This document shows positions 4,215 through 48,488 of a DNA stretch of 64,000 bases, in pieces. A model generated the notes under the pieces. That model worked only from the letters and a program-made list of their open reading frames with translations. It ran no database searches and was not told the origin of the DNA. A program made the position numbers and the translations under genes. The DNA is taken from contig SEAC01000020.1 in the NCBI GenBank assembly GCA_004173235.1, positions 84,678 to 148,677 of the forward strand, given 5' to 3'. This DNA comes from Chitinophagaceae bacterium. Lineage in GTDB: Bacteria; Bacteroidota; Bacteroidia; Chitinophagales; Chitinophagaceae. How positions within the stretch are numbered: the stretch's first letter is position 1; each line of letters opens with the position of its first letter.

Positions 4215-4301
4215 AATTCAAAATTCAAAAGTAAAAAACTGGTTCTTCGTCAAATGCTGCATAGCAAGCGCTTTTGACTTTTTAATTTTGACTTTTGACT
4301 T
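4215..4301. repeat. AAAGTCA/TTTTGAC heptamer inverted-repeat element
   Basis: AATTCAAAATTCAAAAGTAAAA ... TTTTGACTTTTTAATTTTGACTTTTGACTT; right arm encodes the phosphatase C-terminus and stop. Confidence 0.9.
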
Positions 4302-4755
4302 CTCCGTATCTATTAATGACCGCACTACATGCGGCTTCTATCAAGGAGTACACATCATGGTACCCGGGCTCTTCTCCGTACCAGGGGTCGGGAACGTCTT
4401 CGTTCTTGCCCGGGTGCAGCTCGTTGAGCAGGAGGTCGACCTTGCCTGCGTTCCAGTGCCGCCCGGCGATGCGCTTCATATCCACCACCACGTCGTTGGC
4501 CATGGCGTAGATCTTATCATAGCGATGCAGGTCTTCGGCCACAAATCGGCGTGCGCGCTGCCGGCAGATGTCGACGCCATTGTGCTGCGCCACTTTCTGC
4601 GACAACCGGTGCGGCGCTTCGCCCACGTGGTAGCCGTTGGTGCCCGCGCTTTCCACCGTCCACTGCAGACCCTCCGCATCTGCCTTGTGCTGCAAAATGC
4701 CTTCCGCAAGCGGGCTGCGACAGATGTTGCCGAGGCATACCATCAGGATTTTCAT
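4282..4755 (-). CDS. Low molecular weight protein-tyrosine-phosphatase
   Basis: MKILMVCLGNICRSPLAEG P-loop and DVPDPWYG motif; ATG at 4755. Confidence 0.95.
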   Translation of the reverse strand: MKILMVCLGNICRSPLAEGILQHKADAEGLQWTVESAGTNGYHVGEAPHRLSQKVAQHNGVDICRQRARRFVAEDLHRYDKIYAMANDVVVDMKRIAGRHWNAGKVDLLLNELHPGKNEDVPDPWYGEEPGYHDVYSLIEAACSAVINRYGEVKSQN

Positions 4756-4761
4756 CGGGCG

Positions 4762-4769
4762 CAAAGGTA
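4762..4769 (-). promoter_or_regulatory. -7 element (TACCTTTG) for the LMW phosphatase/hisS unit
   Basis: Exact TAnnTTTG match 6 nt upstream of ATG 4755. Confidence 0.65.
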
Positions 4770-4810
4770 ATGGGGGAATGGGGTAATAAGGGAACTGCAT
4801 GATGTGACTT

Positions 4811-4842
4811 CCCTTCCCTTAGGGAAGGGGCAGGGGATGGGT
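4811..4842. repeat. REP-like hairpin of the family flanking DUF559 at 38.4-39.0 kb
   Basis: CCCTTCCC-TTA-GGGAAGGG-GCAGGGGATGGG has the same layout as CCCCTCTCC-TTT-GGAGAGGGG-CCGGGGGTAAGG. Confidence 0.65.
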
Positions 4843-4909
4843 CTGGCTAATGGGGTAATGGGGTATGGAATTGGATTCGCCGCCGCATCTCTTTACAAAA
4901 CCAAACGCC

Positions 4910-5707
4910 ATGAGTCCCAACGAAATTACCCGCAGCTCGCTGCTCGACCTGCTCTTCGAGCACCGCAACAAACAGTATGGTGCCTATGTGCTCCGCAAAT
5001 ATTACGGCAACCGCCTCAGTCTTTCCATCGGCATCATGCTCGGCACCGTGTTGCTCGTGCTGCTGCTGATGAACGTGTTGGCGGGCAAGCCCGAACGCGG
5101 CTTTCTGCCTCCCCAGAAAGTGATCGACATCGTGCTGGCGCAGGCGCCTGCGAAGACGCCCGACCCGGAGCCCATTAAGCCCGCCCGCCGCAGCGGCGCG
5201 CCCGTGCGCACCGACGTGTTCACTAAGCCGGTGATCACCAACGGCCCCACCAACATGCCGCCAAACGATAATTTCAATACGGCCGCCATCGGAACCGTTC
5301 GCTCGGACGGCGGCCCTGGCGACGGGCCTTCGATTCCTGCCGTTGAACCCGGCCCCCCGGCGCCCCTTCCCGCACCTATCGAGACGGCCCCGGAGCCCGA
5401 GGGCATTACCTCCGCGCCGTCGTTTCCGGGTGGTATGAAAGCGTGGACCGACTTCCTGGTGCGGCACCTCGTTCCGTCTTCGGATATGCAGCCCGGCGAA
5501 AGGCGCTCTGTGCTGGTTCGGTTCTGGGTAGATGAGGAGGGCGCCGTTGGCCGCTTCGAGATCGTGCAGTCTGCCGGCAGCGCATTCGACAACGAAGTGC
5601 TGCGCGTGCTGCGCAAGATGCCCCGCTGGAAACCCGCCCTCCAACGCGGCCGCGCCGTTGCTACTTCGTTCGTGCAGCCGGTCACTTTTCAGGCCCCTGA
5701 CGAATGA
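4910..5707 (+). CDS. tonB: Energy transducer TonB
   Basis: SLLDLLFEHRNKQYGAYVLR N-terminus, one TM helix, Pro-rich linker, TonB_C (FPGG, VRFWVDEEG, WKPALQRG); ATG 4910. Confidence 0.9.
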   Translation: MSPNEITRSSLLDLLFEHRNKQYGAYVLRKYYGNRLSLSIGIMLGTVLLVLLLMNVLAGKPERGFLPPQKVIDIVLAQAPAKTPDPEPIKPARRSGAPVRTDVFTKPVITNGPTNMPPNDNFNTAAIGTVRSDGGPGDGPSIPAVEPGPPAPLPAPIETAPEPEGITSAPSFPGGMKAWTDFLVRHLVPSSDMQPGERRSVLVRFWVDEEGAVGRFEIVQSAGSAFDNEVLRVLRKMPRWKPALQRGRAVATSFVQPVTFQAPDE

Positions 5708-5748
5708 AAATGTGCTAATTTGCCCAACCCAAATTGCCCGGAGTTATC

Positions 5749-5991
5749 ATGGTAGAGGAATACGAACAGAAAAGACGGAAACAGGTGAGCCGCATACGCT
5801 CGATAATGGACTACACGATGGGGCTGGTATTCAGCGTGCTGGGACTCCTGTTCCTATATTTCCAGATCAGCAACCGCGAGTTGCTCGGGCGCCGTCCCGA
5901 CACCTGGAACTATTTCATCGGCCTCCTTTTTCTTTGTTACGGCTGCTGGCGCATTTACCGGGGTTACAAGAAGAACTATTTCCGCGAATGA
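5749..5991 (+). CDS. Small two-TM hypothetical membrane protein
   Basis: Two hydrophobic segments, YGCWRIYRGYKKNY C-terminus; ATGA overlap with the next gene. Confidence 0.75.
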   Translation: MVEEYEQKRRKQVSRIRSIMDYTMGLVFSVLGLLFLYFQISNRELLGRRPDTWNYFIGLLFLCYGCWRIYRGYKKNYFRE

Positions 5992-6923
5992 AAAGGCTGA
6001 TGGCTAAACTGGTACGGAGCGCGCCCCTGTGGCTGCTTTGCTCGGCCCTGTTCACGGGCTGCGGCGAGAGCGGTCCCGCATTGGGGGTGCCGGCCGATAC
6101 GCCCGACAGCGGCACCATCCACATATCGGTCGACGAGTCGTTCAAGCCCGTTATCGATAGCGAGATCGCCGTGTACGAGTCGCTGCATCCCGGCACGCAC
6201 ATCATCGCCCATTACAAGCCCGAGGCCGATTGCCTGCGCGACCTGCTTACCGACTCCACGCGCTGCATCATTGCCACGCGCACCTACAGCGCGGCGGAGC
6301 GCAACATCGTCAACGACTCGCTCAAGACTGACCTGCGCTACAACGTAGTGGCCTATGACGCCATCGCGGTGATCACGCATCCGCAATCGCCCGACTCGCT
6401 TTTCAGCACCGAGGAACTGCGTGCGCTGCTTTCGGGACGATCGGCATCAAAGCTTCGCCCTGTATTTGATGGACTGAAGGCAACCAGCACCGTGCGTTTC
6501 ATCGTAGACTCCTTGCTCCAGGGAGGGAAGCTCGGATCGAACGTGACGGCGGCGGAAGGGAGCGAGGCCGTGATCGATTACGTGGCGGCCAACAAAGACG
6601 CGATCGGCTTTATCGGCGTGAGCTGGGTGGGCAACCGGCAGGACAGCTCGCAACTCAGCTACCTCAGCCGCGTGCGCGTGGCATCGCTGCAGGATGCACG
6701 CAACCCGGACAAATACGTGACGCCGGCGCAATACAACATTTACTTTAAACGTTACCCGCTGCGCCGCGATCTAGTATGCATTTTGAAGGAACGTCATATT
6801 GGCCTCGGACATGGCTTTTATAACTACCTCACGACGCAGAGCGGCCAGCTCATCTTCAACCGCGCATTTCTGATGCCGGCGCTGATGAACTTCCAGATCC
6901 GCGATGCACGCGTAAGTGATTAA
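5988..6923 (+). CDS. PstS-like substrate-binding lipoprotein
   Basis: Lipobox FTGC, GTIHISVDESFKPVID, VAYDAIAV, YPLRR; ATG 5988. Confidence 0.85.
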   Translation: MKRLMAKLVRSAPLWLLCSALFTGCGESGPALGVPADTPDSGTIHISVDESFKPVIDSEIAVYESLHPGTHIIAHYKPEADCLRDLLTDSTRCIIATRTYSAAERNIVNDSLKTDLRYNVVAYDAIAVITHPQSPDSLFSTEELRALLSGRSASKLRPVFDGLKATSTVRFIVDSLLQGGKLGSNVTAAEGSEAVIDYVAANKDAIGFIGVSWVGNRQDSSQLSYLSRVRVASLQDARNPDKYVTPAQYNIYFKRYPLRRDLVCILKERHIGLGHGFYNYLTTQSGQLIFNRAFLMPALMNFQIRDARVSD

Positions 6924-7013
6924 TAAACAGTTAGAAAGTCAACCTTAACATCTCACTGGTAAACTAAAGAATAATTTTTGCGCTCTAAATCGAATATAAA
7001 CTCAGATAGGACC

Positions 7014-8708
7014 ATGAAGAAATCTGCCCTTGTTATGTTGCTCGCCGTGTTCTTCGCCCTGGCAGGTGCCGCCCAATCCGTGCAGGAAGGGGTGAACCAC
7101 ATCTATGCCGAGCGGAACAACAGCGCGAAGGCCACGTTTGAGAAGATACTGGCCGCTAACCCCAATAACCTTGAAGCCATCTACTGGCTCGGCCAGGCAC
7201 AACTTGAGCTCGGCGCAGTTGCCGATGCCCGCATTACCTATAGCCGTGCTTTGACCACCAATGGCAATGCGCCCCTCCTGGTGGCCGGCATTGGTCACGT
7301 TTTGCTCGTTGAAGGCAAAAGCGCAGAAGCACGCCAGCAATTTGAGATGGCGCTCAACCTGAGCCGTGGCAAGAAAGGCGACGACCCGGCCGTGCTCAAC
7401 GCGGTTGGCCGCGCCAACGTGGAAACACCTTCGGGCGACGTGGCCTACGGCCTTTCGAAGCTCCAGGCTGCCTCCCAGCTGGCTCCGGCCAATGCCGACG
7501 TGCATATCAACCTCGGTAACGCTTACCGCCGTGCGCACGAAGGTGGCGAGGCCGTAAAAGCATATGGTGTGGCTGCCGCCAATGGCCAGCGTGCCGTTGC
7601 CCTCTACCGCATGGCACGCATCTACGAAACCCAGCGCAACTGGGACGTGGTAACCGAGAACCTCAACAATGCCATCGCCGCTGACCCCAAGTATGGCCCT
7701 GCCTACCTGCGTCAGTATGTATATAACCTCTTTTACAAGCAGGACTTCACCGCTGCCAACGAATGGGCGCAGAAGTATGTAGCCGTTGCCGAGCCTTCGC
7801 TCCAGAACGAGATCTTCAAGGCACAGCCGCTGTACCTGCAGAAGAAGTATTCCGAAGCGATCGCGATCGGTGACCGCATCATCCAGCAGAGCGGAAACGC
7901 CAAGATCGAGCCCACGGTTTACCGCCTGATGGCCTACTCGTACCTCGAAGGACCGAAGGACACTGCAAAAGCCCGCCAGTATGTGGACCAGCTCTTTGCT
8001 ACCGCCAAGAAGGACGAATTCGTAGCTAAAGACTATTCTCTGAAGGCTGCCATCTATTCGAAAGAAGCTCCGAATGAAGTAGTGAACGTTTATATGGATG
8101 CGATGGAAGGCGACACGACGCTGCGCAACAAGCTGCTCATCCTGCAGGAAGGCATTGACTGGGCCAAGTCCAGCGGCCGTAAAGTGGCCGAGGCCGACCT
8201 GCGCCTTGCCCAGTATCGCGTGAACCCGAACTCAAACCCTGCCAGCCTCTTCCAGGTGGGCCTGCCTTACTACCAGGGCGGTGCGTTTGCGAAGGCCGAC
8301 AGCGCGTTCCAGGCTTACAGCCGTGCTTTCCCGGACAGCCTCTACGGTTACCTGTGGAGCGCCCGTGCCCTCGCCAACATCGACACTTCGGGCAAACAGG
8401 GACTGGCTGTGCCCCAATACGAGCAGGTGCTCCGAGTGTCGGCAACCGATAAGGTGCGGTTTGCACCCTACGGCTACGAGGCGGCCACTAACCTCGCCAA
8501 CTACTATGTGAACGAGAAAGGTGACCGTGCCAAGGGAGCCGAACTCCTCCGCCAGGCCATTGCTTTCGATCCTTCCAAAGAGCCATCGCTGAAAGGAGTG
8601 ATCGAGCGGCTGGAAAAGCCCGCGGCGCCGGCCCGGCCTTCGAGGCCTTCCGGAGCCACCAAAGTGAAAACGGAAAACGACAAGACAAAGGCGAAAGTCA
8701 AAAAATAG
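7014..8708 (+). CDS. Tetratricopeptide repeat protein, exported
   Basis: Signal peptide MKKSALVMLLAVFFALAGAAQ and many TPR-like helical repeats. Confidence 0.9.
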   Translation: MKKSALVMLLAVFFALAGAAQSVQEGVNHIYAERNNSAKATFEKILAANPNNLEAIYWLGQAQLELGAVADARITYSRALTTNGNAPLLVAGIGHVLLVEGKSAEARQQFEMALNLSRGKKGDDPAVLNAVGRANVETPSGDVAYGLSKLQAASQLAPANADVHINLGNAYRRAHEGGEAVKAYGVAAANGQRAVALYRMARIYETQRNWDVVTENLNNAIAADPKYGPAYLRQYVYNLFYKQDFTAANEWAQKYVAVAEPSLQNEIFKAQPLYLQKKYSEAIAIGDRIIQQSGNAKIEPTVYRLMAYSYLEGPKDTAKARQYVDQLFATAKKDEFVAKDYSLKAAIYSKEAPNEVVNVYMDAMEGDTTLRNKLLILQEGIDWAKSSGRKVAEADLRLAQYRVNPNSNPASLFQVGLPYYQGGAFAKADSAFQAYSRAFPDSLYGYLWSARALANIDTSGKQGLAVPQYEQVLRVSATDKVRFAPYGYEAATNLANYYVNEKGDRAKGAELLRQAIAFDPSKEPSLKGVIERLEKPAAPARPSRPSGATKVKTENDKTKAKVKK

Positions 8709-8715
8709 CAAGCTG

Positions 8716-8739
8716 AAGCCCCCGGTCCGGGGGCTTTTT
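8716..8739 (+). terminator. Rho-independent terminator
   Basis: AAGCCCCCGG-T-CCGGGGGCTT followed by T tract, just after the TPR stop. Confidence 0.85.
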
Positions 8740-8789
8740 CGTGGCCCTGGCGCCGTGAAATATTAGTGCCGGGATTGATGGCGGTGCTG

Positions 8790-8797
8790 TATTTTTG
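8790..8797 (+). promoter_or_regulatory. -7 element (TATTTTTG) for the nuo operon
   Basis: TAnnTTTG match 18 nt upstream of ATG 8816. Confidence 0.55.
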
Positions 8798-8815
8798 CCG
8801 GCGATTCAAAAGCTT

Positions 8816-9226
8816 ATGTTCCATTTGCTTCAAGCCGACATTACCCGCGCTGTGCAAGACGTGCAAGGCGCTGGCAGCTACCTTCCCGTAGCGCTTCAGT
8901 TCCTGTTTGCATTCGGGATGATTGGTACCCTCATGGGCGTTACCCACCTGCTGGGCCCCAAGCGCAAGACTGCCGACAAGCTCGAAAACTTCGCCTCGGG
9001 CATCGAAAGCCATGGAGCTGCGCGTCAGCCGATGGCGATCAAGTATTTCCTGGTGGCCATTCTTTTCGTTTTGTTTGACGTGGAAGTGATCTTTTTCTAT
9101 CCCTACGCGGTTAATTTCCGTGGATTGGGCTGGGATGGGTTTGTGGCTGTGGTGATGTTCGTAGCCTTTTTCCTGTGCGGGTTCATCTACTGCGTGAAGA
9201 AAGGTGCGCTCAAATGGGAAGACTGA
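8816..9226 (+). CDS. nuoA: NADH-quinone oxidoreductase subunit A
   Basis: FASGIE, KYFLVAILFVLFDVEVIFFYP, KKGALKWE; start ATG 8816 preferred (ORF begins 8795). Confidence 0.95.
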   Translation: MFHLLQADITRAVQDVQGAGSYLPVALQFLFAFGMIGTLMGVTHLLGPKRKTADKLENFASGIESHGAARQPMAIKYFLVAILFVLFDVEVIFFYPYAVNFRGLGWDGFVAVVMFVAFFLCGFIYCVKKGALKWED

Positions 9227-9340
9227 ATTAAAAAGTCAAAATTCGAAAGTCAAAAAGCGGAGCCATCCCAGTTCCGCACTGTTTTTGACCTCGTTAACGC
9301 GTAACAATTTTGACTTTTGACTTTTAAATTTTGAATTATT
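9227..9340. repeat. AAAGTCA/TTTTGAC heptamer inverted-repeat element (nuoA-nuoB)
   Basis: AAAAGTCAAAATTCGAAAGTCAAAAA ... TTTTGACTTTTGACTTTTAAATTTTGAATT. Confidence 0.9.
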
Positions 9341-9925
9341 ATGGCACGTCCCGTATCGTTCAACATACACGAAAAACCGCTGGAGAGAGACATCTCGGTG
9401 GCTGAAATGCCTGATGGCTTCCAGGGGGAAGGATTCTTTGCCCAAAAGCTGAGCGAGGCCGTGGGCCTCGCGCGCAAGAATTCCATCTGGCCGCTCCCTT
9501 TTGCCACTTCCTGCTGCGGTATTGAATTCATGGCCACGATGGCCTCCCACTACGACCTTGCCCGCTTCGGCGCCGAACGCCTCGGCTTTTCGCCGCGCCA
9601 GTGCGACCTGCTGATGGTGATGGGCACCATCTCGAAGAAAATGGCACCGGTGGTGCGCCAGGTATACCTGCAGATGGCTGAGCCCCGATGGGTGATGGCC
9701 GTGGGTGCCTGCGCCTGCTCCGGCGGTGTGTTCGACTCGTACAGCGTGCTCCAGGGCATCGACCAGGTGGTGCCTGTAGACGTGTATGTGCCCGGCTGCC
9801 CGCCGCGCCCCGAGGCCATCATCGACGGCATCCTGCGCATCCAGGACCTTGTGGGCAAGGAAAGCCTGCGCCGCCGCAACAGCGATCATTATAAAACGCT
9901 CCTCGAGAGCTACGGTATACAATAA
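9341..9925 (+). CDS. nuoB: NADH-quinone oxidoreductase subunit B
   Basis: WPLPFATSCCGIE, SPRQCD, GACACSGG, YVPGCPPRPE. Confidence 0.97.
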   Translation: MARPVSFNIHEKPLERDISVAEMPDGFQGEGFFAQKLSEAVGLARKNSIWPLPFATSCCGIEFMATMASHYDLARFGAERLGFSPRQCDLLMVMGTISKKMAPVVRQVYLQMAEPRWVMAVGACACSGGVFDSYSVLQGIDQVVPVDVYVPGCPPRPEAIIDGILRIQDLVGKESLRRRNSDHYKTLLESYGIQ

Positions 9926-10014
9926 TTAAAAAGTCAAAAGTAACAAGTCAAATGGGTTCTTCGCCGATGATACTGAATGAGCTTTTGACTTTCGACTTTT
10001 GAATTTTGACTTTC
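9926..10014. repeat. AAAGTCA/TTTTGAC heptamer inverted-repeat element (nuoB-nuoC)
   Basis: AAAAAGTCAAAAGTAACAAGTCAAA ... TTTTGACTTTCGACTTTTGAATTTTGACTTT. Confidence 0.9.
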
Positions 10015-10569
10015 ATGAGTAACGAACAAATCCAGCAGCAACTCCAGGAGCACTTCGGCGACACCGTCAAGGGTTTCGAGGAGTCTTACGGCATGCTGAC
10101 TTTCGAAGCGGAAACCGGACGGAACATTGACGTGCTCCGTTTTTTGTATGAGCAGGGCTTCCGTTTTCTTACCGATGTGACGGCCGTGCACTACCCGGCG
10201 TTTGCCGGCCGCGAGATCGCCGTGGTGTATCACCTGCACAACCTGGTGGACAACATCCGCATCCGCTTCAAAGTGTTTGCGCCCATAGCGAAGCCCGACG
10301 TGGCGAGCGCAACGGCTATTTTTGAAAGCGCCAACTGGCAGGAGCGAGAGGCCTACGATTTCTTTGGCGTCAACTTCACGGGCCACCCCAACCTGAAGCG
10401 GATCCAAAACGTTGAGGAGATGGACTACTTCCCGCTGCGCAAGGAGTTCCCGCTCGAAGACCAGACGCGCATCGATAAAGACGACGAGATGTTCGGTCGG
10501 GGCGGCTCGTTCGATTTCGGAAACCGCCAGGAAGACGGCTCGCCCGCGCAGCTGGCAAACAATGAGTAA
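10015..10569 (+). CDS. nuoC: NADH-quinone oxidoreductase subunit C
   Basis: ANWQEREAYDFFGVNFTGHPNLKRI, FPLRKEFPL; ATG 10015. Confidence 0.96.
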   Translation: MSNEQIQQQLQEHFGDTVKGFEESYGMLTFEAETGRNIDVLRFLYEQGFRFLTDVTAVHYPAFAGREIAVVYHLHNLVDNIRIRFKVFAPIAKPDVASATAIFESANWQEREAYDFFGVNFTGHPNLKRIQNVEEMDYFPLRKEFPLEDQTRIDKDDEMFGRGGSFDFGNRQEDGSPAQLANNE

Positions 10570-10570
10570 T

Positions 10571-10595
10571 GCCCTTCGACTCCGCTCAGGGCGAC
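10571..10595. repeat. REP-like palindrome (reverse complement GTCGCCCTGAGCGGAGTCGAAGGGC)
   Basis: GCCCT...AGGGC stem with an internal loop and a terminal GAC/GTC tag. Confidence 0.7.
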
Positions 10596-10663
10596 AAGCC
10601 CTCCGCAGGGTCAAGGAGTAAGAATAAGTTTAAACGGTGAAGCCGGAATTTTGGATGAAAGCC

Positions 10664-10691
10664 ATTCACGATTCACGATTCACGATTCACG
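10664..10691 (+). repeat. Perfect heptamer tandem repeat (ATTCACG)4
   Basis: Four exact copies ending 6 nt before the nuoD ATG. Confidence 0.95.
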
Positions 10692-10697
10692 ATAACA

Positions 10698-11933
10698 ATG
10701 GCCACAACAAATCCGCATTCCCACATCCCGCTTCCGGAAGGAGCGCTTGAGAAGGAAACGACGACCATCAACCTCGGCCCCACGCACCCGGCCACGCACG
10801 GCGTGTTCCAGAACATCGTGGAGCTCGATGGCGAAACCGTGGTGTCGGCCGAGCAGACCATCGGCTATATCCACCGGGCCTTCGAAAAGATCGCCGAGCG
10901 CCGCCCGCTTTACCAGATCACGCCGCTGACCGACCGCCTCAACTACTGCTCGGCGCCCATCAACAACATGGGCTGGCATATGACCTGCGAAAAGCTTCTG
11001 GGCATCCAAACGCCGAAGCGCGTAGATTATCTCCGCGTGATCATCATGGAACTGGCCCGCATCGCCGATCACATCATCTGCAACTCCGTGATCGGGGTAG
11101 ACACCGGCGCTTTCACCGGCTTCCTCTACGTGATGCAGTACCGCGAACTCATCTACGAGATCTGGGAAGAAGTGTGCGGCTCGCGCCTCACCACCAACAT
11201 CGGCCGCATCGGTGGCTTCGAGCGCGACTTCAACAACATCGCTTTTACCAAGCTGGAAAAATTCCTTGCCGAATTCCCCGACGTACTGCGGGAGTTCGAT
11301 AGCCTCTTCACGCGCAACCGCATTTTCATGGACCGCACCATCGGCGCGGGCCCCATTGGAGCGGAGCGCGCCCTCAACTACGGCTTCACCGGTCCCAACC
11401 TGCGTGCAGCGGGTGTGGATTACGATGTGCGCGTGCATTCGCCCTACTGCTCTTACCAGGACTTCGAGTTCAGCATTCCCACCGGCACCACCGGCGACTG
11501 CTACGACCGCTTCCTGGTGCGCAACGGCGAAATGTGGGAGTCGATCTCCATCGTGCGCCAGGCCTACCAGAAGCTCCAGGACATAAAGGGCGCGGATGCA
11601 TCGGTGTACCACGCCGACGTGCCCGAGTATTACCTCCCCGACAAGAAAGATGTGTACACGAAGATGGAAGCGCTGATCTACCACTTCAAGATCGTCATGG
11701 GCGAGGTTAATATACCGCCGGGCGAAGTATACCACAGCGTGGAAGGCGCCAACGGCGAGCTGGGCTTCTACCTCATCTCCGATGGTGGCCGCAGCCCGTA
11801 CCGCCTGCACTTCCGCCGTCCCTGCTTCGTATACTACCAGGCCTACGAAGAACTGGTAAAAGGGGGCATGTTGTCCGACGCCATCATCACGATGTCGTCG
11901 CTCAACCTGATCGCCGGCGAAATGGATGGGTAA
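10698..11933 (+). CDS. nuoD: NADH-quinone oxidoreductase subunit D
   Basis: NLGPTHPATHG, GYIHRAFEK, DRLNY, EGANGELGFY, IAGEMD. Confidence 0.97.
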   Translation: MATTNPHSHIPLPEGALEKETTTINLGPTHPATHGVFQNIVELDGETVVSAEQTIGYIHRAFEKIAERRPLYQITPLTDRLNYCSAPINNMGWHMTCEKLLGIQTPKRVDYLRVIIMELARIADHIICNSVIGVDTGAFTGFLYVMQYRELIYEIWEEVCGSRLTTNIGRIGGFERDFNNIAFTKLEKFLAEFPDVLREFDSLFTRNRIFMDRTIGAGPIGAERALNYGFTGPNLRAAGVDYDVRVHSPYCSYQDFEFSIPTGTTGDCYDRFLVRNGEMWESISIVRQAYQKLQDIKGADASVYHADVPEYYLPDKKDVYTKMEALIYHFKIVMGEVNIPPGEVYHSVEGANGELGFYLISDGGRSPYRLHFRRPCFVYYQAYEELVKGGMLSDAIITMSSLNLIAGEMDG

Positions 11934-12044
11934 AGACGCACCATGTGCGTCTCTGTGTGAGATGTAAAGACGCACCATGTGCGTCTCCGATAGCGTAAAG
12001 ACGCACCATGTGCGTCTCCAGTAAAGACGCACTATGTGCGTCTC
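11930..12044 (+). repeat. Four tandem 24-bp GTAG-type REP palindromes
   Basis: GTAAAGACGCACCATGTGCGTCTC at 11930, 11964, 11995 and 12021 (last has one substitution); spacers 10, 7 and 2 nt. Confidence 0.95.
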
Positions 12045-12059
12045 CTAAAACGAACGACA

Positions 12060-12557
12060 ATGACCTTTTCAGAAGACAAACTCAATAAAGTACGCGAGAT
12101 CGTGGCGCGCTACCCCGAAGGGAAGCAGAAGAGCGCCCTCATCCCCGTGCTGCACCTGGCACAGGAAGCCAACAATGGCTGGCTGTCGTCGGACGCGATG
12201 GATTACGTGGCTTCGCTGCTCGACCTGAAGCCGATCGAAGTGTACGAGGTGGCGACCTTCTACAGCATGTTCAACCTGAAGCCGATCGGCAAGTACCTGT
12301 TTGAGGTGTGCCAGACCGGCCCCTGCATGGTGAACGGCTCCGACGATATCATCGCCTACATCAAGCAGAAGCTGGATATCGGCGTGGGTGAAACCACTAC
12401 CGACGGCATGTTCACGCTGAAGACCGTTGAGTGCCTTGGCGCCTGCGGTTATGCGCCCATGATGCAGCTGGGCAAATTTTACAAAGAGCACCTCACTCCT
12501 GAAAAGGTGGATGCGATCATTGACGAATGCCGTAGAAATGCGGTTGCTAATAATTAA
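12060..12557 (+). CDS. nuoE: NADH-quinone oxidoreductase subunit E
   Basis: VATFYSMF, VCQTGPC, ECLGACGYAPMM 2Fe-2S motifs; ATG 12060. Confidence 0.96.
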   Translation: MTFSEDKLNKVREIVARYPEGKQKSALIPVLHLAQEANNGWLSSDAMDYVASLLDLKPIEVYEVATFYSMFNLKPIGKYLFEVCQTGPCMVNGSDDIIAYIKQKLDIGVGETTTDGMFTLKTVECLGACGYAPMMQLGKFYKEHLTPEKVDAIIDECRRNAVANN

Positions 12558-12643
12558 AAAGTCAAAATTCGAAAGTAAAAACGCTCATGCGATACCAACA
12601 GCGTAGAACCGGTTTTTGACTTTTGAATTTTGAATTTTGACTT
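12556..12643. repeat. AAAGTCA/TTTTGAC heptamer inverted-repeat element (nuoE-nuoF)
   Basis: AAAAAGTCAAAATTCGAAAGTAAAA ... TTTTTGACTTTTGAATTTTGAATTTTGACTT. Confidence 0.9.
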
Positions 12644-12650
12644 GTACACC

Positions 12651-14003
12651 ATGGGTAGAAAATTATTACTCGAACACGAACACGTAGAAGGCATCCGCTA
12701 CTACGAAACCTACCGCCGCAACGGTGGTTATGCCGCCGTGGAGAAGGCCTTCAAAATGGGCCCTGCCGACATCGTGGAAGAAGTGAAGAAGAGCGGCCTC
12801 CGTGGCCGTGGTGGCGCCGGCTTCCCTACCGGTATGAAGTGGAGCTTCCTTGCCAAGCCCGAGGGCGTTCCGCGCTACCTCGTTTGCAACGCCGACGAAT
12901 CGGAGCCCGGTACCTTCAAGGACCGCTACCTGATGGAGTTCCTCCCGCACCTGCTGATCGAGGGGCTCATCATTTCTTCGTTTGCGCTGGGCTCCAACCG
13001 CACCTATATCTATATCCGCGGCGAATATGCCTGGATCGTAGATATACTGGAGCAGGCTATTGCCGAAGCCAACCAGGCGGGCTTCCTCGGAAAGAACATT
13101 CTCGGCTCGGGCTTCGACTGCCAGATCTATGTGCAGCGCGGCGCGGGTGCCTATATCTGCGGTGAAGAAACCGCGCTCCTCGAATCGCTCGAAGGCAAGC
13201 GCGGCAACCCACGCATCAAGCCGCCCTTCCCCGCTATCAAGGGACTCTACGACTGCCCCACCGTGGTCAACAACGTGGAGACGCTCGCAGCGGTGGTGCC
13301 CATCATCAACATCGGTGGTGAGGAGTATGCGAAGATCGGCGTGGGCAAATCAACCGGTACCAAGCTCATCTCGGCCTGCGGCAACATCAACAAGCCCGGC
13401 ATCTACGAGATCGACATGACCATCTCGGTAGAAGAATTCATATACGGCGAGGAATACTGCGGCGGCATCCCCAAAGGCAAGCGCCTGAAGGCTTGCATTC
13501 CTGGTGGTTCTTCGGTTCCCATCCTGCCTGCCAACCTCCTGCTCAAAACGGCAAAAGGCGAGCAGCGGATGATGACCTACGAAAGCCTCGCCGATGGCGG
13601 CTTCCCCACGGGTTCGATGATGGGCTCGGGTGGATTCATCGTGCTGGATGAAGACCAGTGCGTGGTGCGCCACACTTATTCGCTGGCACGCTTCTACCGC
13701 CACGAAAGCTGCGGCCAGTGTTCGCCCTGCCGCGAAGGCACGGGCTGGATGGAAAAGATCCTGCACAAGATCGAGCACGGTAAAGGCGATATGCGCGATA
13801 TCGACCTGCTGTGGGATATCCAGAGCAAGATCGAAGGCAACACCATCTGCCCCCTGGGTGATGCGGCTGCCTGGCCGGTGGCTGCGGCCATCCGCCACTT
13901 CCGCGACGAATTTGAATGGCACGTGCTGAACCCCGAGGAAAGCCAGAAGCGCAACTTCGGGCTGGCGCATTATGCGGATCCGATTTCGGTTGCCGTAGGA
14001 TAA
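12651..14003 (+). CDS. nuoF: NADH-quinone oxidoreductase subunit F
   Basis: GLRGRGGAGFPTG, NADESEPGTFKD, GAYICGEETAL, ESCGQCSPCREG; ATG 12651. Confidence 0.97.
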   Translation: MGRKLLLEHEHVEGIRYYETYRRNGGYAAVEKAFKMGPADIVEEVKKSGLRGRGGAGFPTGMKWSFLAKPEGVPRYLVCNADESEPGTFKDRYLMEFLPHLLIEGLIISSFALGSNRTYIYIRGEYAWIVDILEQAIAEANQAGFLGKNILGSGFDCQIYVQRGAGAYICGEETALLESLEGKRGNPRIKPPFPAIKGLYDCPTVVNNVETLAAVVPIINIGGEEYAKIGVGKSTGTKLISACGNINKPGIYEIDMTISVEEFIYGEEYCGGIPKGKRLKACIPGGSSVPILPANLLLKTAKGEQRMMTYESLADGGFPTGSMMGSGGFIVLDEDQCVVRHTYSLARFYRHESCGQCSPCREGTGWMEKILHKIEHGKGDMRDIDLLWDIQSKIEGNTICPLGDAAAWPVAAAIRHFRDEFEWHVLNPEESQKRNFGLAHYADPISVAVG

Positions 14004-14007
14004 ATAG

Positions 14008-14351
14008 AAAGTCAAAATTCAAAAGTCAAAAGGCCTCGCTGTTCGCACAGTTTTATAGGTTTGAGACTTCTAAATTTTGACCGGATGGAGTTTGAAGATC
14101 TTTTTTTATTGGAAGACGGCGAGAAGCGATCGCTTTGAAGTCGGCCAATGAAACGAAATATTGGATTTGCCTGATCCGTGAAACGATGGATTTGGACAAA
14201 CGAAAACTAAATGAGTTGCTCCAGGAAGCCAACGAGCTTTCGAAGATAATCGCCAGTATTATCACAAGTGAGTGATTCGAATTGAGTACGCTGGCCAACG
14301 AGCGGAGTCTACGACCTGCTTTTTGACTTTTGACTTTTGAATTTTGACTTT
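14008..14351. mobile_element. Heptamer inverted-repeat element enclosing a four-helix-bundle gene remnant
   Basis: Left arm AAAGTCAAAATTCAAAAGTCAAAA (14008-14031) is perfectly complementary to 24 nt of the right arm (14321-14351); the interior is AT-rich. Confidence 0.7.
14096..14275 (+). pseudogene. 3' fragment of a four helix bundle protein gene (TIGR02436 / 23S rRNA IVP-like)
   Basis: Manual translation ...IALKSANETKYWICLIRETMDLDKRKLNELLQEANELSKIIASIITSE* fits the A-x-E-T-x-Y-W ... E-L-x-x-I-I C-terminal half; in-frame TGA at 14093-14095 and no start that includes the ETKYW motif. Confidence 0.75.
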
Positions 14352-14353
14352 AT

Positions 14354-15544
14354 ATGTCAGAAGAGAAGAAACTTTTTAAGGTAACGATCGACAACATCAC
14401 GGTGGAAGTCGAGCAGGGCACTACGATCCTCATGGCCGCCCGCAAGATTGGTGGCGATATAGTGCCGCCCACGATGTGCTACTACAGCAAGCTCGATAAG
14501 ACAGGTGGTTATTGCCGCACCTGCCTCGTGCGCGTGGCTGCAGGCTCTACCGCCGACCCGCGCCCGATGCCCAAGCTCGTGGCCTCCTGCCGCACGCAGG
14601 TGATGGACGGAATGATCGTGGAAAACATCACCAACCCCACGGTGCTCGAAGCACGCAAGGGCGTTGTTGAATTCCTGCTGCTCAACCACCCGCTCGACTG
14701 CCCCGTGTGCGACCAGGCCGGTGAGTGCGACCTGCAGGATCTTTCGTACCAGCACGGTAAGGAGGGCACCCGCTACGAGTTTAAGCGCCGCACCTTCGAG
14801 CGTATCGACCTCGGGCCTTATATCCAGCTGCACATGACGCGCTGCATTCTTTGCTACCGCTGCGTGCACACCGCCAACCAGGTGGCCGGCGGCCGCGAGC
14901 ACGGCGTGCTGGATCGGGGCGACCACGCGCAGATCGCAACCTATATACAGAAGTCGCTTGATAACGAAATGATCGGCAACGTCATCGACGTTTGTCCGGT
15001 AGGCGCGCTTACCGACCGCACGTTCCGCTTCAAGAACCGCGTGTGGTTTACCAAGCCGGTGGACGCGCACCGCGATTGCACCCATTGCAAGGGTGAAGTG
15101 CGCCTGTGGATGCGCGGCGACGACGTGCTGCGCGTTACCGCCCGCAAAGATCAGTGGGGTGAAGTGGGTAACAACTCCGATGGCAGCACGGGCTGGATCT
15201 GCAACGAATGCCGCTTCGAGAAGAAGCAGGTGAGCGACTGGACCATCGAAGGTCCTACGCGCGTAGACCGCCACTCGGTGATCAATGCGGGACACTACAC
15301 GAACACGGTAGTGCCGAAAGAAACCTTCCAGGATGTGATGAAGGGCCGCGATCCGAAATTGCTGATGGACATCCACAGCGTTTCCGATGTAAATACAGTG
15401 GACCTCAACGTGCTTCCCGGACCGGCAACCAGCGCCACCTTCAACGGCCACCCGCAGGCCAGCGGCGTCAACGTTACCGATGTGAAGGAAGGCGTGGGAA
15501 GAAACAAAATGGGAACGGATTCGACGAATGCCAATACTCCGTGA
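14354..15544 (+). CDS. nuoG: NADH-quinone oxidoreductase subunit G (short, Fe-S domain only)
   Basis: CYY...CRTCLV, HPLDCPVCDQAGECDLQ, CILCYRCV, CPVGALT. Confidence 0.95.
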   Translation: MSEEKKLFKVTIDNITVEVEQGTTILMAARKIGGDIVPPTMCYYSKLDKTGGYCRTCLVRVAAGSTADPRPMPKLVASCRTQVMDGMIVENITNPTVLEARKGVVEFLLLNHPLDCPVCDQAGECDLQDLSYQHGKEGTRYEFKRRTFERIDLGPYIQLHMTRCILCYRCVHTANQVAGGREHGVLDRGDHAQIATYIQKSLDNEMIGNVIDVCPVGALTDRTFRFKNRVWFTKPVDAHRDCTHCKGEVRLWMRGDDVLRVTARKDQWGEVGNNSDGSTGWICNECRFEKKQVSDWTIEGPTRVDRHSVINAGHYTNTVVPKETFQDVMKGRDPKLLMDIHSVSDVNTVDLNVLPGPATSATFNGHPQASGVNVTDVKEGVGRNKMGTDSTNANTP

Positions 15545-15610
15545 ACCGTGAGCCTGGAACCGTGAGCGCCATCCGGCTACCTGCTCACGGCTGACGGCTG
15601 ACGCTTCACG
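15541..15610. repeat. GTGARCC/GCTSACG heptamer inverted-repeat element (nuoG-nuoH)
   Basis: GTGAACC GTGAGCC TGGAACC GTGAGC ... GCTCACG GCTGACG GCTGACG CTTCACG; contains the nuoG stop. Confidence 0.85.
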
Positions 15611-15652
15611 AAACGATATCATCACGGGGCGCAGCTCCACACTGAAGCAACT

Positions 15653-16786
15653 ATGCACTTACTAATGGCAGAATGGGTCATCACCCTCATTGAAAAATTT
15701 GCACTGGTGGCGATCATCGTAACGGTGTCGCTGGTAGTGGCGATGTACAGCACCTATGCGGAGCGCAAGATCGCGGCCTTCCTCCAGGACCGCCGCGGCC
15801 CCAACCGCGCCGGGCCTTTCGGCCTCTTGCAACCGCTTGCAGATGGCGTGAAGCTGTTCATGAAAGAAGAGATCATCCCGAACACGTCTTCGAAATTCCT
15901 CTTTATTGCAGGCCCACTGCTCGCAATGATCACGGCTACCATGACGAGTGCGGTCATCCCCTGGGGACCAACCTCGACGATGTTCGGCCACACCATGCCG
16001 CTGCAGATCGCCGACATCAACATCGGCGTGCTCTACATCTTCGGTGTGGTTTCGCTGGGCGTATACGGCATCATGATCGGCGGCTGGGCCTCCAACAATA
16101 AATTCTCGCTGCTGGCAGCCATCCGCGGCGCCTCGCAGATGATCTCCTACGAACTGGCGATGGGCCTTTCGCTCCTGGCCGTGCTGCTCATCGTGGGCGA
16201 CCTGCGCATGAGCGTGATCGTGGACTACCAGATCCAGCATGGCTGGAACGTGCTCTACCAGCCGCTTGGCTTCTTCATTTTCTTTATCTGCGCCCTTGCC
16301 GAGTGCAACCGCACGCCCTTCGACCTTCCGGAAGCGGAGAACGAGCTGAACATGGGCTACCATCAGGAGTATTCTTCGATGAAGCTTGGTTTCTACCTCT
16401 TTGCGGAGTATATCAACATGTTCATTTCGGGTGTGGTGATGGCGACGCTCTTTTTCGGCGGCTGGGACATCCCGTTTTTCAACGAAGCGGCGCACGGCGG
16501 CGCGTGGTGGGTTGGACTGCTCAGTTTCGCCTGCCTCATGTGCAAAGCATTCTTCTCCATCTTCCTGTTCATGTGGATCCGCTGGACCATCCCGCGCTTC
16601 CGCTTCGACCAGCTGATGAACCTCGGGTGGCGTGGCCTTCTGCCGCTGGCACTCGCCAACATGGTAATCACCGCAGGACTCGTTCTGTGGCTCAATAATG
16701 ACGCTGCGCCCGCCCCTCAAAAAGGAGTAATTTCGCAGCCGTCGCAAACTCAACAAGTAAGCCTGACAAATGCAACTCACCAATAA
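15653..16786 (+). CDS. nuoH: NADH-quinone oxidoreductase subunit H
   Basis: ERKIAAFLQDRRGPNRAGPFGLLQPLADGVK, AECNRTPFDLPEAE, PRFRFDQLM. Confidence 0.97.
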   Translation: MHLLMAEWVITLIEKFALVAIIVTVSLVVAMYSTYAERKIAAFLQDRRGPNRAGPFGLLQPLADGVKLFMKEEIIPNTSSKFLFIAGPLLAMITATMTSAVIPWGPTSTMFGHTMPLQIADINIGVLYIFGVVSLGVYGIMIGGWASNNKFSLLAAIRGASQMISYELAMGLSLLAVLLIVGDLRMSVIVDYQIQHGWNVLYQPLGFFIFFICALAECNRTPFDLPEAENELNMGYHQEYSSMKLGFYLFAEYINMFISGVVMATLFFGGWDIPFFNEAAHGGAWWVGLLSFACLMCKAFFSIFLFMWIRWTIPRFRFDQLMNLGWRGLLPLALANMVITAGLVLWLNNDAAPAPQKGVISQPSQTQQVSLTNATHQ

Positions 16787-17312
16787 GAACAAGCCGGTAG
16801 ATCGCCGGCCGATGACGGTGGCCGAGAAGCTGTACATCCCCGCGATCATCAAGGGCATGGGCATCACCTTCAGCCACATGTTCAAGAAGAAGCCGACGAT
16901 CAGCTATCCCGAGGAGCAGCGCCCATTCTCGGCAGTTTTCCGCGGGCTGCAGATCCTCAACCGCGACGAGGAAGGACGTGAGCGCTGCACCGCCTGCGGC
17001 CTGTGCGCCCTTGCCTGCCCTGCCGAAGCCATTACGATGGAAGCGGCGGAGCGCCAGGCTGGCGAAGAGCACCTCTACCGGGAAGAGAAGTACGCAGCCA
17101 GGTACGAGATCAATATGCTGCGCTGCATCTTTTGCGGACTGTGCGAAGAAGCCTGCCCGAAGGATGCCATCTACCTCTCTCAAACTTTTGCGCCCGCCAA
17201 CTACGGTCGCAAGGGCTTTATTTATAAGAAGGACGACCTGCTGATACCCGACCCGACGACGGATCCGGAAGGCTACGCGAAAGCGAAAGGAACGATCCCC
17301 CAATCGAAATAA
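16770..17312 (+). CDS. nuoI: NADH-quinone oxidoreductase subunit I
   Basis: CTACGLCALACP and CIFCGLCEEACP 4Fe-4S motifs. Confidence 0.97.
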   Translation: MQLTNKNKPVDRRPMTVAEKLYIPAIIKGMGITFSHMFKKKPTISYPEEQRPFSAVFRGLQILNRDEEGRERCTACGLCALACPAEAITMEAAERQAGEEHLYREEKYAARYEINMLRCIFCGLCEEACPKDAIYLSQTFAPANYGRKGFIYKKDDLLIPDPTTDPEGYAKAKGTIPQSK

Positions 17313-17326
17313 ACCACAACCTGCTC

Positions 17327-17884
17327 ATGGGAATTACGGAAATACTCTTTTGGATCCTTGCGGTGGCCTCCATCGGCAGTGCGCTGATGGTGGTCACGAG
17401 CAAGAACCCCATCTTCAGCGTGATCTGGCTGATCGTAACCTTTTTTACCATCTCCGGTCACTACATCCTGCTCAACGCGCAGTTCCTGGCCGTGGTGAAC
17501 ATCATCGTGTACGCCGGCGCCATCATGGTGCTGTTCCTCTTCGTGATCATGCTGATGAACCTCGATAAGAACACCGAAGTGCAGAAGGGACGCTGGATGC
17601 GGCTCATCGGCGCCGTTGCGGGCGGATGCCTGCTGCTGGTGCTCGTGGCCGGCCTGCGCAGCACCGAAGCGCGCGCAACCCAACTGGGTACGGGCGACAT
17701 CGGCCTCATCCAGAACCTTGGCCGCGTGCTGTTTACCGAATACGTAGTGCCTTTCGAACTGAGCTCGGTGCTCTTCCTCACTGCGATGGTAGGCGCCGTA
17801 GTTATCGGCAAGCGCGACCAGACCGGCCGTGCCGCCGTGGCTACCGCGGCCGCAACAACCGCAGGAACGTTGGAAGCGGAGTAA
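17327..17884 (+). CDS. nuoJ: NADH-quinone oxidoreductase subunit J
   Basis: IVYAGAIMVLFLFVIML, PFELSSVLFL. Confidence 0.96.
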   Translation: MGITEILFWILAVASIGSALMVVTSKNPIFSVIWLIVTFFTISGHYILLNAQFLAVVNIIVYAGAIMVLFLFVIMLMNLDKNTEVQKGRWMRLIGAVAGGCLLLVLVAGLRSTEARATQLGTGDIGLIQNLGRVLFTEYVVPFELSSVLFLTAMVGAVVIGKRDQTGRAAVATAAATTAGTLEAE

Positions 17885-17911
17885 ACCTCAAAACAAGCGA
17901 ATAACATCCTC

Positions 17912-18241
17912 ATGGATATCCGATACTACATTTTTCTCTCCATCGCGCTGTTCGTCACCGGCATCATCGGTGTGCTCACGCGTCGCAATGCCATCGTCAT
18001 CTTCATGTGCATTGAGCTGATGCTGAATGCTGTGAATCTGCTGCTGGTGGCTTTTTCGAAGATGCACTATAAGGCGCTCGCCGCCACGAACCCTACGGCG
18101 GGCACCGACGGACAACTGTTCGTGTTCTTCATCATGGTGGTTGCCGCAGCTGAAGTAAGCGTCGGCCTGGCTATCATCGTGATGCTATACCGCAACACGC
18201 GCTCGGTAGATATTAACTTTCTGAATCGTCTTAAACATTAA
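17912..18241 (+). CDS. nuoK: NADH-quinone oxidoreductase subunit K
   Basis: [32 protein letters not shown]. Confidence 0.96.
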
Positions 18242-18313
18242 TTCAAAAGGCGAAAGTCAAAATTCAAAAACCGGTTCGTTGCAAACGCTTTTGACTTTTG
18301 ACTTTTGAATTTT
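18241..18313. repeat. AAAGTCA/TTTTGAC heptamer inverted-repeat element (nuoK-nuoL)
   Basis: ATTCAAAAGGCGAAAGTCAAAATTCAAAAA ... TTTTGACTTTTGACTTTTGAATTTT. Confidence 0.9.
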
Positions 18314-18321
18314 CCTTCGTC

Positions 18322-20226: not shown

Positions 20227-20251
20227 TTCCTCGCCTTCGCTCGGAATGGCA
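20226..20251. repeat. REP-like palindrome (reverse complement TGCCATTCCGAGCGAAGGCGAGGAAT)
   Basis: ATTCC...GGAAT stem with a TCGC/TCG loop; followed by a lone TTTTGACTTTTGAATT heptamer arm (about 20274-20290). Confidence 0.65.
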
Positions 20252-20302
20252 AAACGATGGCGGCAAGCTGCCTTTTGACTTTTGAATTGAATTGACTGTA
20301 TT

Positions 20303-21778: not shown

Positions 21779-21781
21779 GAT

Positions 21782-41869: not shown

Positions 41870-42030
41870 CAACTGCAAACTGGAAAACGGCAAGCGCAAA
41901 CTGCAAACTGGAAACTGGAAAAACGCAAAACGCAAACTACAAACTGCAAACCAAAAACGCAAACCGCAAACTGGAAAACCGCAAACTGCAAACCGAAAAC
42001 TGCAAACTACAAACCACAAACTTCAAACTC
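41870..42030 (+). repeat. Long degenerate heptamer array (CAAACTG-like, about 23 units)
   Basis: CAAACTG GAAAACG ... CAAACTA CAAACCA CAAACTT CAAACTC, ending next to the helicase stop. Confidence 0.92.
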
Positions 42031-48233: not shown

Positions 48234-48488
48234 ATGTGGTGGATGCTACATCGGGGGGCCTTCCTTTATAAAAAAAGGGGAGCCGTCATCCCGGCGCTTG
48301 CCGCCGGGATCTAAAGAGGATGAAGCCAGGATGCGCAGCGCCGGGATCTAATGGGGATGATGCACTCCGCGCCGCGCCGGGATGACGGGCGTCGCAGGAA
48401 CGCATCGGGCCCCATGACAGCATCTCCCTCTGTCCCGGCATCCGGGCGATGGGGCCCCGTTAGTGCAGGACCTCCTCGCGGAATACTA

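Follow-up and report, generated by a model that had tools for sequence, protein, structure and literature searches.

Gene-less, heptamer-armed palindromes resembling ribosomal intervening sequences in the cistron gaps of a Chitinophagaceae nuo operon

The window analysed in this work, a 64,000-nt stretch of contig SEAC01000020.1 (part of contig C14 in our numbering) from a Chitinophagaceae genome assembly (GCA_004173235.1), carries on its plus strand the nuoA-N operon encoding complex I (8816-23155; nuoA-N confirmed by Pfam). Gaps between its cistrons host short palindromes that enclose no gene and are built from tandem A/T-rich heptamers, and another palindrome of this make lies next to hisS. 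Here we establish the anatomy, copy number and fixed arm polarity of these elements, their link to a four-helix-bundle gene, their clustering in nuo and their recurrence across genera in differing nuo gaps. The assembly comprises 3.76 Mb in 41 contigs with 56.7% GC. None of the 41 contigs shows a 16S or 23S rRNA signature, a 5S-like match on C10 being the only hit, and since it lacks an rRNA operon the assembly is probably a metagenome-assembled genome (MAG).

All five copies listed in a preliminary description of this DNA are present where it placed them (4215-4301, 9227-9340, 9926-10014, 12556-12643 and 18241-18313). Each element runs from an array of GTCAAAA/TTCAAAA units through a core of normal GC content (14-90 nt) into an array of TTTTGAC/TTTTGAA units, the left arm consisting of two to five units of GTCAAAA, TTCAAAA or GTAAAAA and the right arm of two to five units of TTTTGAC, TTTTGAA or TTTTTAC. 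The 13-mer TTTTGACTTTTGA, with at most one mismatch, is matched 25 times in the window for 0.08 matches expected from shuffles. Four of the copies fill gaps of the nuo operon, namely nuoA-nuoB (9227-9340; core starting with GCGGAGCC, terminator-like hairpin at 9257-9277, minimum free energy (MFE) -32.5 kcal/mol, z -3.6), nuoB-nuoC (9926-10014; GGTTCTTCG core subfamily, z -2.4), nuoE-nuoF (12552-12645 at full extent; core homologous to that of the 9926 copy but inverted, z -3.0) and nuoK-nuoL (18241-18313; core CCGGTTCG...ACGC, MFE -23.5 kcal/mol, z -3.6). The remaining one (4215-4301) separates hisS, which is read from the minus strand with its ATG at 4211-4209, from a divergent open reading frame (ORF) on the plus strand (core subfamily CTGGTTCTTCG...GCGC, MFE -18.8 kcal/mol, z -2.7). 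The nuo copies do run, as had been described, from the upstream stop codon nearly to the next ATG: the left terminus lies at the stop codon, contains it or begins 0-4 nt past it, and the predicted stems, which include the upstream stop codon, end 5-10 nt before the next ATG. In the nuoE-nuoF copy, for instance, the nuoE stop TAA (12555-12557) is inside the left terminus ATTAAAAAGTC. Overall, the predicted RNA stems measure 25-33 bp, contain roughly one mismatch in each unit and have an MFE between -19 and -32.5 kcal/mol and z between -2.4 and -3.6. No Rfam 15 family matched at E ≤1 between positions 3500 and 24000 of the window.

Further occupants of the nuo gaps were absent from the preliminary description: a longer copy at 14008-14351 between nuoF and nuoG, a half copy at 20259-20296 between nuoL and nuoM, and sibling repeats in the C-D, D-E and G-H gaps. 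The half copy is a GC hairpin followed by TTTTGAC and TTTTGAA units with no recognisable left arm (z 0.0). The nuoF-nuoG copy is a decayed gene-bearing cassette, with a left arm at 14008-14033, a short inner array of right type at 14068-14081 and a right arm at 14319-14351. The two arms pair without a mismatch along 25 nt, and one frame of the 289-nt interior translates as ALKSANETKYWICLIRETMDLDKRKLNELLQEANELSKIIASIITSE before reaching a stop. The translation identifies this stretch (14096-14272, plus strand) as the 3' half of a four-helix-bundle gene, covering positions 59-107 of the 109 of TIGR02436 with an E-value of 1.4e-8 and a score of 34.9 bits (cut-off 24). In NCBIfam, this model is named "four helix bundle protein"; it corresponds to Pfam 23S_rRNA_IVP (PF05635), the family of 23S rRNA intervening-sequence proteins.

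What is decayed in the window, with arms still intact, is found whole in relatives. In loci L008, L036, L071, L004 and L059, the nuoF-nuoG gap is occupied by a gene of 125-140 aa that is complete or almost so, with A-rich heptamers on its left and T-rich heptamers on its right. In L059, the gene (11355-11980) is split by an insert of ~110 nt unrelated to the family, which represents another stage of decay. In L031, the nuoF-nuoG gap is empty (29 nt) and an intact gene-bearing cassette sits in the nuoK-nuoL gap, an arrangement that amounts to a relocation. When these proteins were aligned and the alignment was used to search metagenome contigs, 80 loci were recovered, 75 of which had both flanks, and complementary A/T heptamer arms were detected at z>4 in 61 of the 75. 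Among the 40 metagenome loci listed with flanks, almost all are located between the nuoF stop and the nuoG start. Across the nuoF-nuoG loci, the enclosed protein is 53-76% identical and the arms are kept throughout; the conservation of site, arms and protein indicates that the cassette is old and largely vertically inherited there. The gene-bearing form of the A/T family is thus a long-standing resident of the nuoF-nuoG gap in many Chitinophagaceae.

The same packaging extends to other genes. With profiles built in this analysis, we found four other four-helix-bundle genes and five GxxExxY genes (TIGR04256, PDDEXK_3) in the genome. Inverted arms of their own flank all four of the former and four of the five latter; one pair (C39) is a simple inverted repeat, and the survey revealed no evident arms at the gene on C22. 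These arms are mostly arrays of 7-8-nt units, and the unit differs from gene to gene although the arms are complementary each time, implying that complementarity, and not sequence, is what is kept. In the nuoF-nuoG gap of L016, L019, L032, L044, L046, L053 and L079, a GxxExxY gene lies between inverted CTTTGCG...CGCAAAG arrays. Since this gap can hold a four-helix-bundle or a GxxExxY cassette, two unrelated gene families share the same site and the same packaging.

The preliminary description had also suggested that genomic copies be counted, and we find 37 short copies of the A/T element, 11 of them on contig C14, with a median length of 83 nt, a median core of 36 nt and four units as the commonest arm. 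Arms average 23% GC and cores 55%. Their polarity is fixed: in 37 of 93 cases, an A-rich array has a T-rich one after it at a distance of up to 100 nt, and the reverse order occurs once, next to 54 left-type and 47 right-type arrays that are unpaired. The 14-kb nuo operon alone holds five copies for 0.14 expected (35-fold clustering, P = 4e-7). The A/T unit is one of several: tandem arrays of period 7 number 253 in the genome, versus 81 for period 6 and 69 for period 8, and can be grouped by unit into at least seven families with 19-36 arrays apiece. Similar palindromes, each with its own fixed polarity, are formed by at least six further heptamer families (CGTGAGC...GCTCACG, AATCGTG...CACGATT, CTGATGT...ACATCAG and others). 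A run of three TTTTGAC units puts TGA into every reading frame, and TGA is also part of most of the abundant heptamers of this genome (CGTGAGC, CTGATGT, GTGAATC, AATGAGT and GAGATGT); such arrays are therefore all-frame stops on one strand. Carriage by phages was considered and set aside, the element pattern having no exact match in a collection of viral contigs.

A comparison of nuo gaps among relatives, another proposal of the preliminary description, reveals a patchy presence in differing gaps, with compact operons also found. The gap table covers 80 Chitinophagaceae nuo operons and the presence tree 49 loci; a looser arm pattern applied to AT-rich relatives returned mostly noise outside the gaps and was not used in the counts. 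The NuoF of the window is 84-90% identical to Chitinophagaceae sequences, and the nearest locus on a five-protein tree belongs to a Flavisolibacter MAG (L015, 85% identity). Some nuo operons are compact with gaps of 3-60 nt (L009, L012, L034 and L041), while others have gaps of about 90, 450-520, 900 or 1600 nt, the large ones containing small genes. In the nuoE-nuoF gap, a DUF4440 gene of ~140 aa is common in Chitinophagaceae (e.g. L002, L006, L016, L038, L045 and L049) and accounts for 23 of the 106 gap ORFs. It has no flanking arms in the six loci listed with flanks and is absent from the window, where this gap consists of the 93-nt palindrome only. The remaining gap genes include 23S_rRNA_IVP, PDDEXK_3, HEPN/nucleotidyltransferase pairs, AAA_15, DUF2442 and Uma2, among others. 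Gene-less A/T palindromes that fit flush between stop and ATG recur in L073 (B-C, C-D and K-L gaps), L033 (B-C, H-I), L038 (D-E, E-F), L031 (A-B, E-F), L051 (B-C), L036 (D-E) and L024 (D-E), and palindromes of other units occupy nuo gaps of L004, L039, L060 and L015. In L015, palindromes are found in the A-B, B-C, E-F and K-L gaps as in the window, built of other units, which argues that occupancy is recurrent and that the occupant turns over. The strict A/T element is present in a nuo gap in 10 of the 49 loci and shows no phylogenetic clustering, 10 changes being needed on the tree, no better than with shuffled labels. The elements had been suggested to be mobile instead of arising by slippage in place, and some mobility or turnover is indeed favoured over purely local slippage by the clustering in nuo, the patchy tree, the different heptamers of L015 and the K-L cassette of L031. 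We regard such mobility or turnover on an evolutionary scale as more probable than not.

The cores tell a more restricted story than the one first proposed, which saw conserved and directional inner motifs as a sign of common descent with inversion. The inner-edge strings that had been quoted are real, and the 12556 copy does carry their reverse complement; an end-to-end alignment of the 9926 core with the inverted 12556 core matches 19 of 28 positions. Global alignment of cores of similar length gives z>3 in nine of 202 pairs, which join the 4215, 9926, 12556 (inverted) and 18241 copies with C14:63860, C14:219357, C22:599471, C38:13724 and a few others. This excess of related pairs delineates a diverged subfamily centred on contig C14 and fits local copying with at least one inversion. 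Common descent can consequently be upheld for this subset, mostly on one contig, and not for the family at large. The nuoA-nuoB core is different, sharing GCGGAGCC with C12:75143, and most genomic copies are without the inner motif: among the 37 cores, the commonest inner-edge 5-mers are unremarkable and local similarity stays within the range of shuffled cores. A motif common to the whole family is thus not supported, which fulfils one part of the refutation named in the preliminary description, and only the diverged subfamily emerges from global alignment.

How should these elements be classified? They possess the complementary termini with a stem of at least 20 bp that characterize intervening sequences (IVSs), and the terminal inverted repeats of transposable elements of the miniature inverted-repeat type (MITEs). 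Of the PF05635/TIGR02436 ORF that IVSs can enclose, a remnant persists in the 14008-14351 copy and intact versions exist in relatives, whereas the five copies listed initially are devoid of ORF; gene-less IVSs also exist. In Coxiella burnetii, the 23S IVS in helix 45 has a 28-bp terminal stem within which RNase III cuts (Warrier et al. 2016, PMC4990558). Three to four tandem heptamers adjoin its S23p ORF, their copy number varies among strains, and the RNA part, not the protein, was concluded to be relevant (PMC4990558). The elements studied here thus resemble the ORF-containing 23S IVSs of Coxiella and Leptospira in their inverted-repeat stem (~28 bp in those IVSs), in the heptamers beside the ORF and in the S23p protein itself, which is PF05635/TIGR02436 (PMC4990558), as well as in the occurrence of gene-less and gene-decaying forms. 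They differ in being located between cistrons or other genes, in being mostly gene-less and in reaching ~37 copies per genome.

A second close parallel is offered by the GGGAATC repeats of Xanthomonas, intergenic tandem heptamers that often form two convergent arrays, with 70-75 pairs per genome (Rehm et al. 2015, PMC4692102). Here too, two convergent arrays of the same heptamer, with about four units each, stand next to a stop codon; the Xanthomonas arrays likewise have ~4 units, lie very close to or overlap the upstream stop and are kept, with variation in length and sequence, between the same genes of related species (PMC4692102). However, their unit is G-rich and has been studied as a quadruplex former, whereas the units TTTTGAC/TTTTGAA, in arms with 23% GC, cannot form such a structure. 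The Xanthomonas study draws no link to a four-helix-bundle gene (PMC4692102). More broadly, no connection between gene-less operon palindromes and the four-helix-bundle cassette was found in the searchable literature on heptamer repeats. On this basis, the elements are very probably gene-less members of a class of IVS-like, heptamer-armed palindromic cassettes, and they are best filed with the rRNA IVSs and the Xanthomonas-type inverted heptamer arrays, as a variant of both.

Other families are less close. Correia elements of Neisseria (Neisseria miniature insertion sequences, NEMIS) are MITEs that are co-transcribed with their neighbours and whose stems are cut by RNase III; their sequence is conserved over its full length, and they possess defined terminal repeats as well as a target duplication (TA). 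The elements described here share with them a short, multi-copy, gene-less inverted-repeat structure in intergenic or intercistronic positions, but their cores are mostly unrelated, their arms are heptamers in variable number and no duplication was found. Nor is there a conserved interior derived from a transposase-encoding parent, as expected of a MITE, the gene-bearing form coding for a four-helix-bundle protein. As tandem 7-nt units that are intergenic and variable in copy number, the arms also have the features of short tandemly repeated repetitive (STRR) sequences and long simple sequence repeats (LSSRs). Families of four to five tandem heptanucleotides are known in Geobacter metallireducens (PMC2700814), TAACTGA arrays precede start codons in Beggiatoaceae, Cyanobacteria and five Bacteroidetes (MacGregor 2015, PMC4679880), and TTTTGAA/TTCAAAA arrays near start codons of Nostoc PCC 7120 affect reporter expression (preprint 10.1101/2022.06.06.494920). 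Like TAACTGA and the cyanobacterial STRR repeats, the elements are intergenic tandem heptamers, often within a few nucleotides of start codons, and the Nostoc unit is one of the two main units here. Unlike these elements, those repeats are described as direct arrays instead of inverted arms that pair around a core or a gene, and a translational or transcriptional role is proposed for them, whereas the contexts observed here include convergent gene ends.

Taking these data together, we lean towards an explanation in which the gene-less palindromic cassettes are inserts that have spread or been replaced, whose stem is looped out and likely to serve as a substrate for RNase III. Such inserts would be selfish or nearly neutral and would be disseminated or exchanged over evolutionary time through some route at the DNA level. 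In the transcript, the A-rich 5' arm would pair with the U-rich 3' arm, and the resulting stem of 25-33 bp would loop the insert out and bring the upstream stop codon beside the downstream start codon; it is this pairing of the arms that may account for the survival of the inserts inside operons. A duplex of 25-33 bp is long enough for RNase III, whose gene (rnc) is present on contig C33. As in the homologous rRNA IVSs, the stem would then be a likely RNase III substrate, and its cutting would split the nuo mRNA. Cleavage is established for the Coxiella IVS and we infer it for the present elements: the length of the stems and the cutting of the same architecture in Coxiella rRNA make the idea plausible by analogy only, so that processing of the nuo mRNA at the stems is a tentative proposal to which we give somewhat less than even weight.

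Several observations weigh against this explanation. The order of unit variants is not mirrored between the two arms, native elements ranking at about the 0.5 percentile of block-permuted arms (own genome, n=32; relatives, n=12; metagenome cassettes, n=18). The stem therefore carries no fine-scale compensatory signal, and the arms are complementary by unit family, not by individual variant. Target-site duplications were not detected either, flanking repeats averaging 0.81 nt versus 0.99 nt for mismatched flank pairs, although short duplications could escape detection at such fuzzy termini. Neither a transposase or other mobility enzyme nor near-identical copies were found for these elements, and their cores are mostly unrelated, unlike those of classical MITEs. 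All copies lie between protein-coding genes and none in an rRNA helix, in an assembly that lacks the rRNA operon. Finally, the gene contexts of 39 genomic copies (11 convergent, 20 tandem and 8 divergent; assigned with a crude rule based on ORFs and GC at third codon positions, which mislabels some cases) are close to random proportions and give no sign of an operon-specific role.

A bolder version of the looped-out insert can be envisaged, which we consider rather doubtful as a whole. Heptamer palindromes with or without a four-helix-bundle gene would be "intervening sequences of messenger RNA", a single widespread class of selfish hairpins colonising transcribed junctions, both rRNA helices and cistron boundaries. 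The host would put up with the inserts since RNase III, by cutting the stem, removes or isolates them, leaving the 14-gene nuo transcript in about six pieces, while the four-helix-bundle protein would read the 7-nt units and drive the spread or maintenance of the arms.

Among the alternatives, the most serious is that the palindromes benefit the host. The stems could segment or stabilise the nuo mRNA and thereby set the stoichiometry of the subunits, as the preliminary description had proposed, or else couple the translation of successive cistrons to the same end. Their position, from the stop codon to just before the ATG, speaks for such a role, as do the palindromes that L015, the nearest relative, has in the same gaps despite a different unit, the retention of the arms across nuoF-nuoG loci whose enclosed protein has diverged, and their outliving of the decayed gene in the window. 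Yet many relatives manage with compact nuo operons free of any element, occurrence is dispersed over the tree, the nuo copies have cores in both orientations and fine-scale covariation is missing; moreover, 11 of the 39 copies are located between convergent genes and eight between divergent ones. We therefore judge a host-beneficial role unlikely.

Still less likely is that two simple-sequence arrays grew independently by polymerase slippage, with neither insertion nor function, the heptamer being the favoured unit and AT-rich boundaries the favoured place. The unmirrored unit order and the missing target duplication would follow naturally, as would mostly unrelated cores with a genome-like 55% GC and the occurrence of solo arrays, both in the window (10664-10693) and among the unpaired arrays of the genome. 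In many bacteria, heptamers are moreover cited as the most over-represented class of long simple sequence repeats (Mrazek 2007, as cited in PMC4679880). However, slippage leaves unexplained why pairs of complementary arrays show one order in 37 cases and the reverse in a single case, why each heptamer family keeps a fixed polarity, why the same arms surround one gene family in 61 of 75 loci, and how a diverged core subfamily with one inversion and the perfect 25-nt mirror of the 14008 copy came about.

Of about the same low standing, or slightly lower, is the possibility that the arrays are binding sites for a sequence-specific DNA- or RNA-binding protein, either the four-helix-bundle protein itself or a translation factor of the S1, Csp or Csr type, with an inverted layout that reflects binding symmetry and not a stem. 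Relatives of the four-helix-bundle protein are pentamers that bind nucleic acid in diversity-generating retroelements. The units TTTTGAC/TTTTGAA are maintained across genera whose GC content ranges from 36 to 57%, and about four units per arm with unmirrored variants would suit independent arrays of sites. The reporter effect of the Nostoc arrays (preprint 10.1101/2022.06.06.494920) and the repeat-binding translational regulators proposed for TAACTGA repeats (MacGregor 2015, PMC4679880) go in the same direction. Against this stand the different unit of each four-helix-bundle or GxxExxY cassette in this genome, the presence of 37 A/T elements alongside a matching gene that survives as a dead copy only, and the fact that no protein has been tied to any heptamer.

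Transcription signals, whether bidirectional intrinsic terminators (A-tract, hairpin and U-tract) or portable outward-facing Bacteroidota promoters, are highly improbable as a general role: terminator-like hairpins followed by T-rich units do occur in two of the seven nuo-region copies (9257-9277 and 20259-20272) and in some sibling-family cores, and junctions TTTTTAC|TTTTGA and TTTTTAA|TTTTGA do create the -7 box TAnnTTTG in 23 of 74 arms (genome density, 0.145 per kb per strand), but terminator-like sites are not enriched (27 versus 21.2 in shuffles), most other cores fold weakly, a terminator at every other nuo gene boundary would do harm, and the boxes show no preference for arms facing gene starts (12 of 33) over those facing gene ends (11 of 41) and are absent from the right arms of the nuo copies.

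Beyond the A/T elements, the window contains other repeats. A sibling palindrome built from a different heptamer family occupies the nuoG-nuoH gap and reads (CCGTGAG)n...(CTCACGG)n (15536-15610; MFE -37.6 kcal/mol, z -5.4). In the nuoC-nuoD gap, a solo array of 4.3 ATTCACG units (10664-10693, plus strand) ends 4 nt before the nuoD ATG without an inverted partner; it belongs to the AATCGTG family, which counts 19 arrays in the genome and forms palindromes elsewhere. The nuoD-nuoE gap (11930-12045) is made of 3.8 tandem copies of a 31-nt unit with the hairpin GACGCAC-CATG-GTGCGTC, whose 25 copies in the genome point to a family resembling repetitive extragenic palindromic (REP) sequences and separate from the heptamer elements. 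The GTG annotated as the start of nuoE (12036) falls within this 31-nt repeat, and the ATG at 12057 is a likelier start. Near the hisS copy, the 8-mer TAATGGGG forms short arrays at 4769-4787 and 4848-4865, and the same 8-mer builds the inverted arms of a four-helix-bundle cassette at C25:8204-8623. Further downstream, ~22 heptamers resembling AACTGCA/AAACGCA extend over 41871-42029 with higher-order periods of 56 and 63 nt, and the tandem-repeat table lists a 195-nt unit in 2.8 copies and two arrays of 36-nt units (47275-47813 and 48485-48940).

To conclude, the consequences of looped-out palindromic cassettes for this family of bacteria depend on the fate of their stems. If these are processed, a core respiratory operon of a common soil and freshwater family would be routinely cut at selfish hairpins, and the rRNA "intervening sequence" would represent a single facet of a wider class of elements that inhabits mRNAs too. 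Processing of the stems would also provide a concrete origin for the unexplained heptamer repeats of Cyanobacteria, Xanthomonas, Geobacter, Beggiatoaceae and Bacteroidota, and would point to a role for the large uncharacterised families of four-helix-bundle (PF05635) and GxxExxY proteins. Even if the stems are not processed, the nuo operon of this Chitinophagaceae genome still offers a clean example of palindromic inserts that saturate an essential operon without breaking it.

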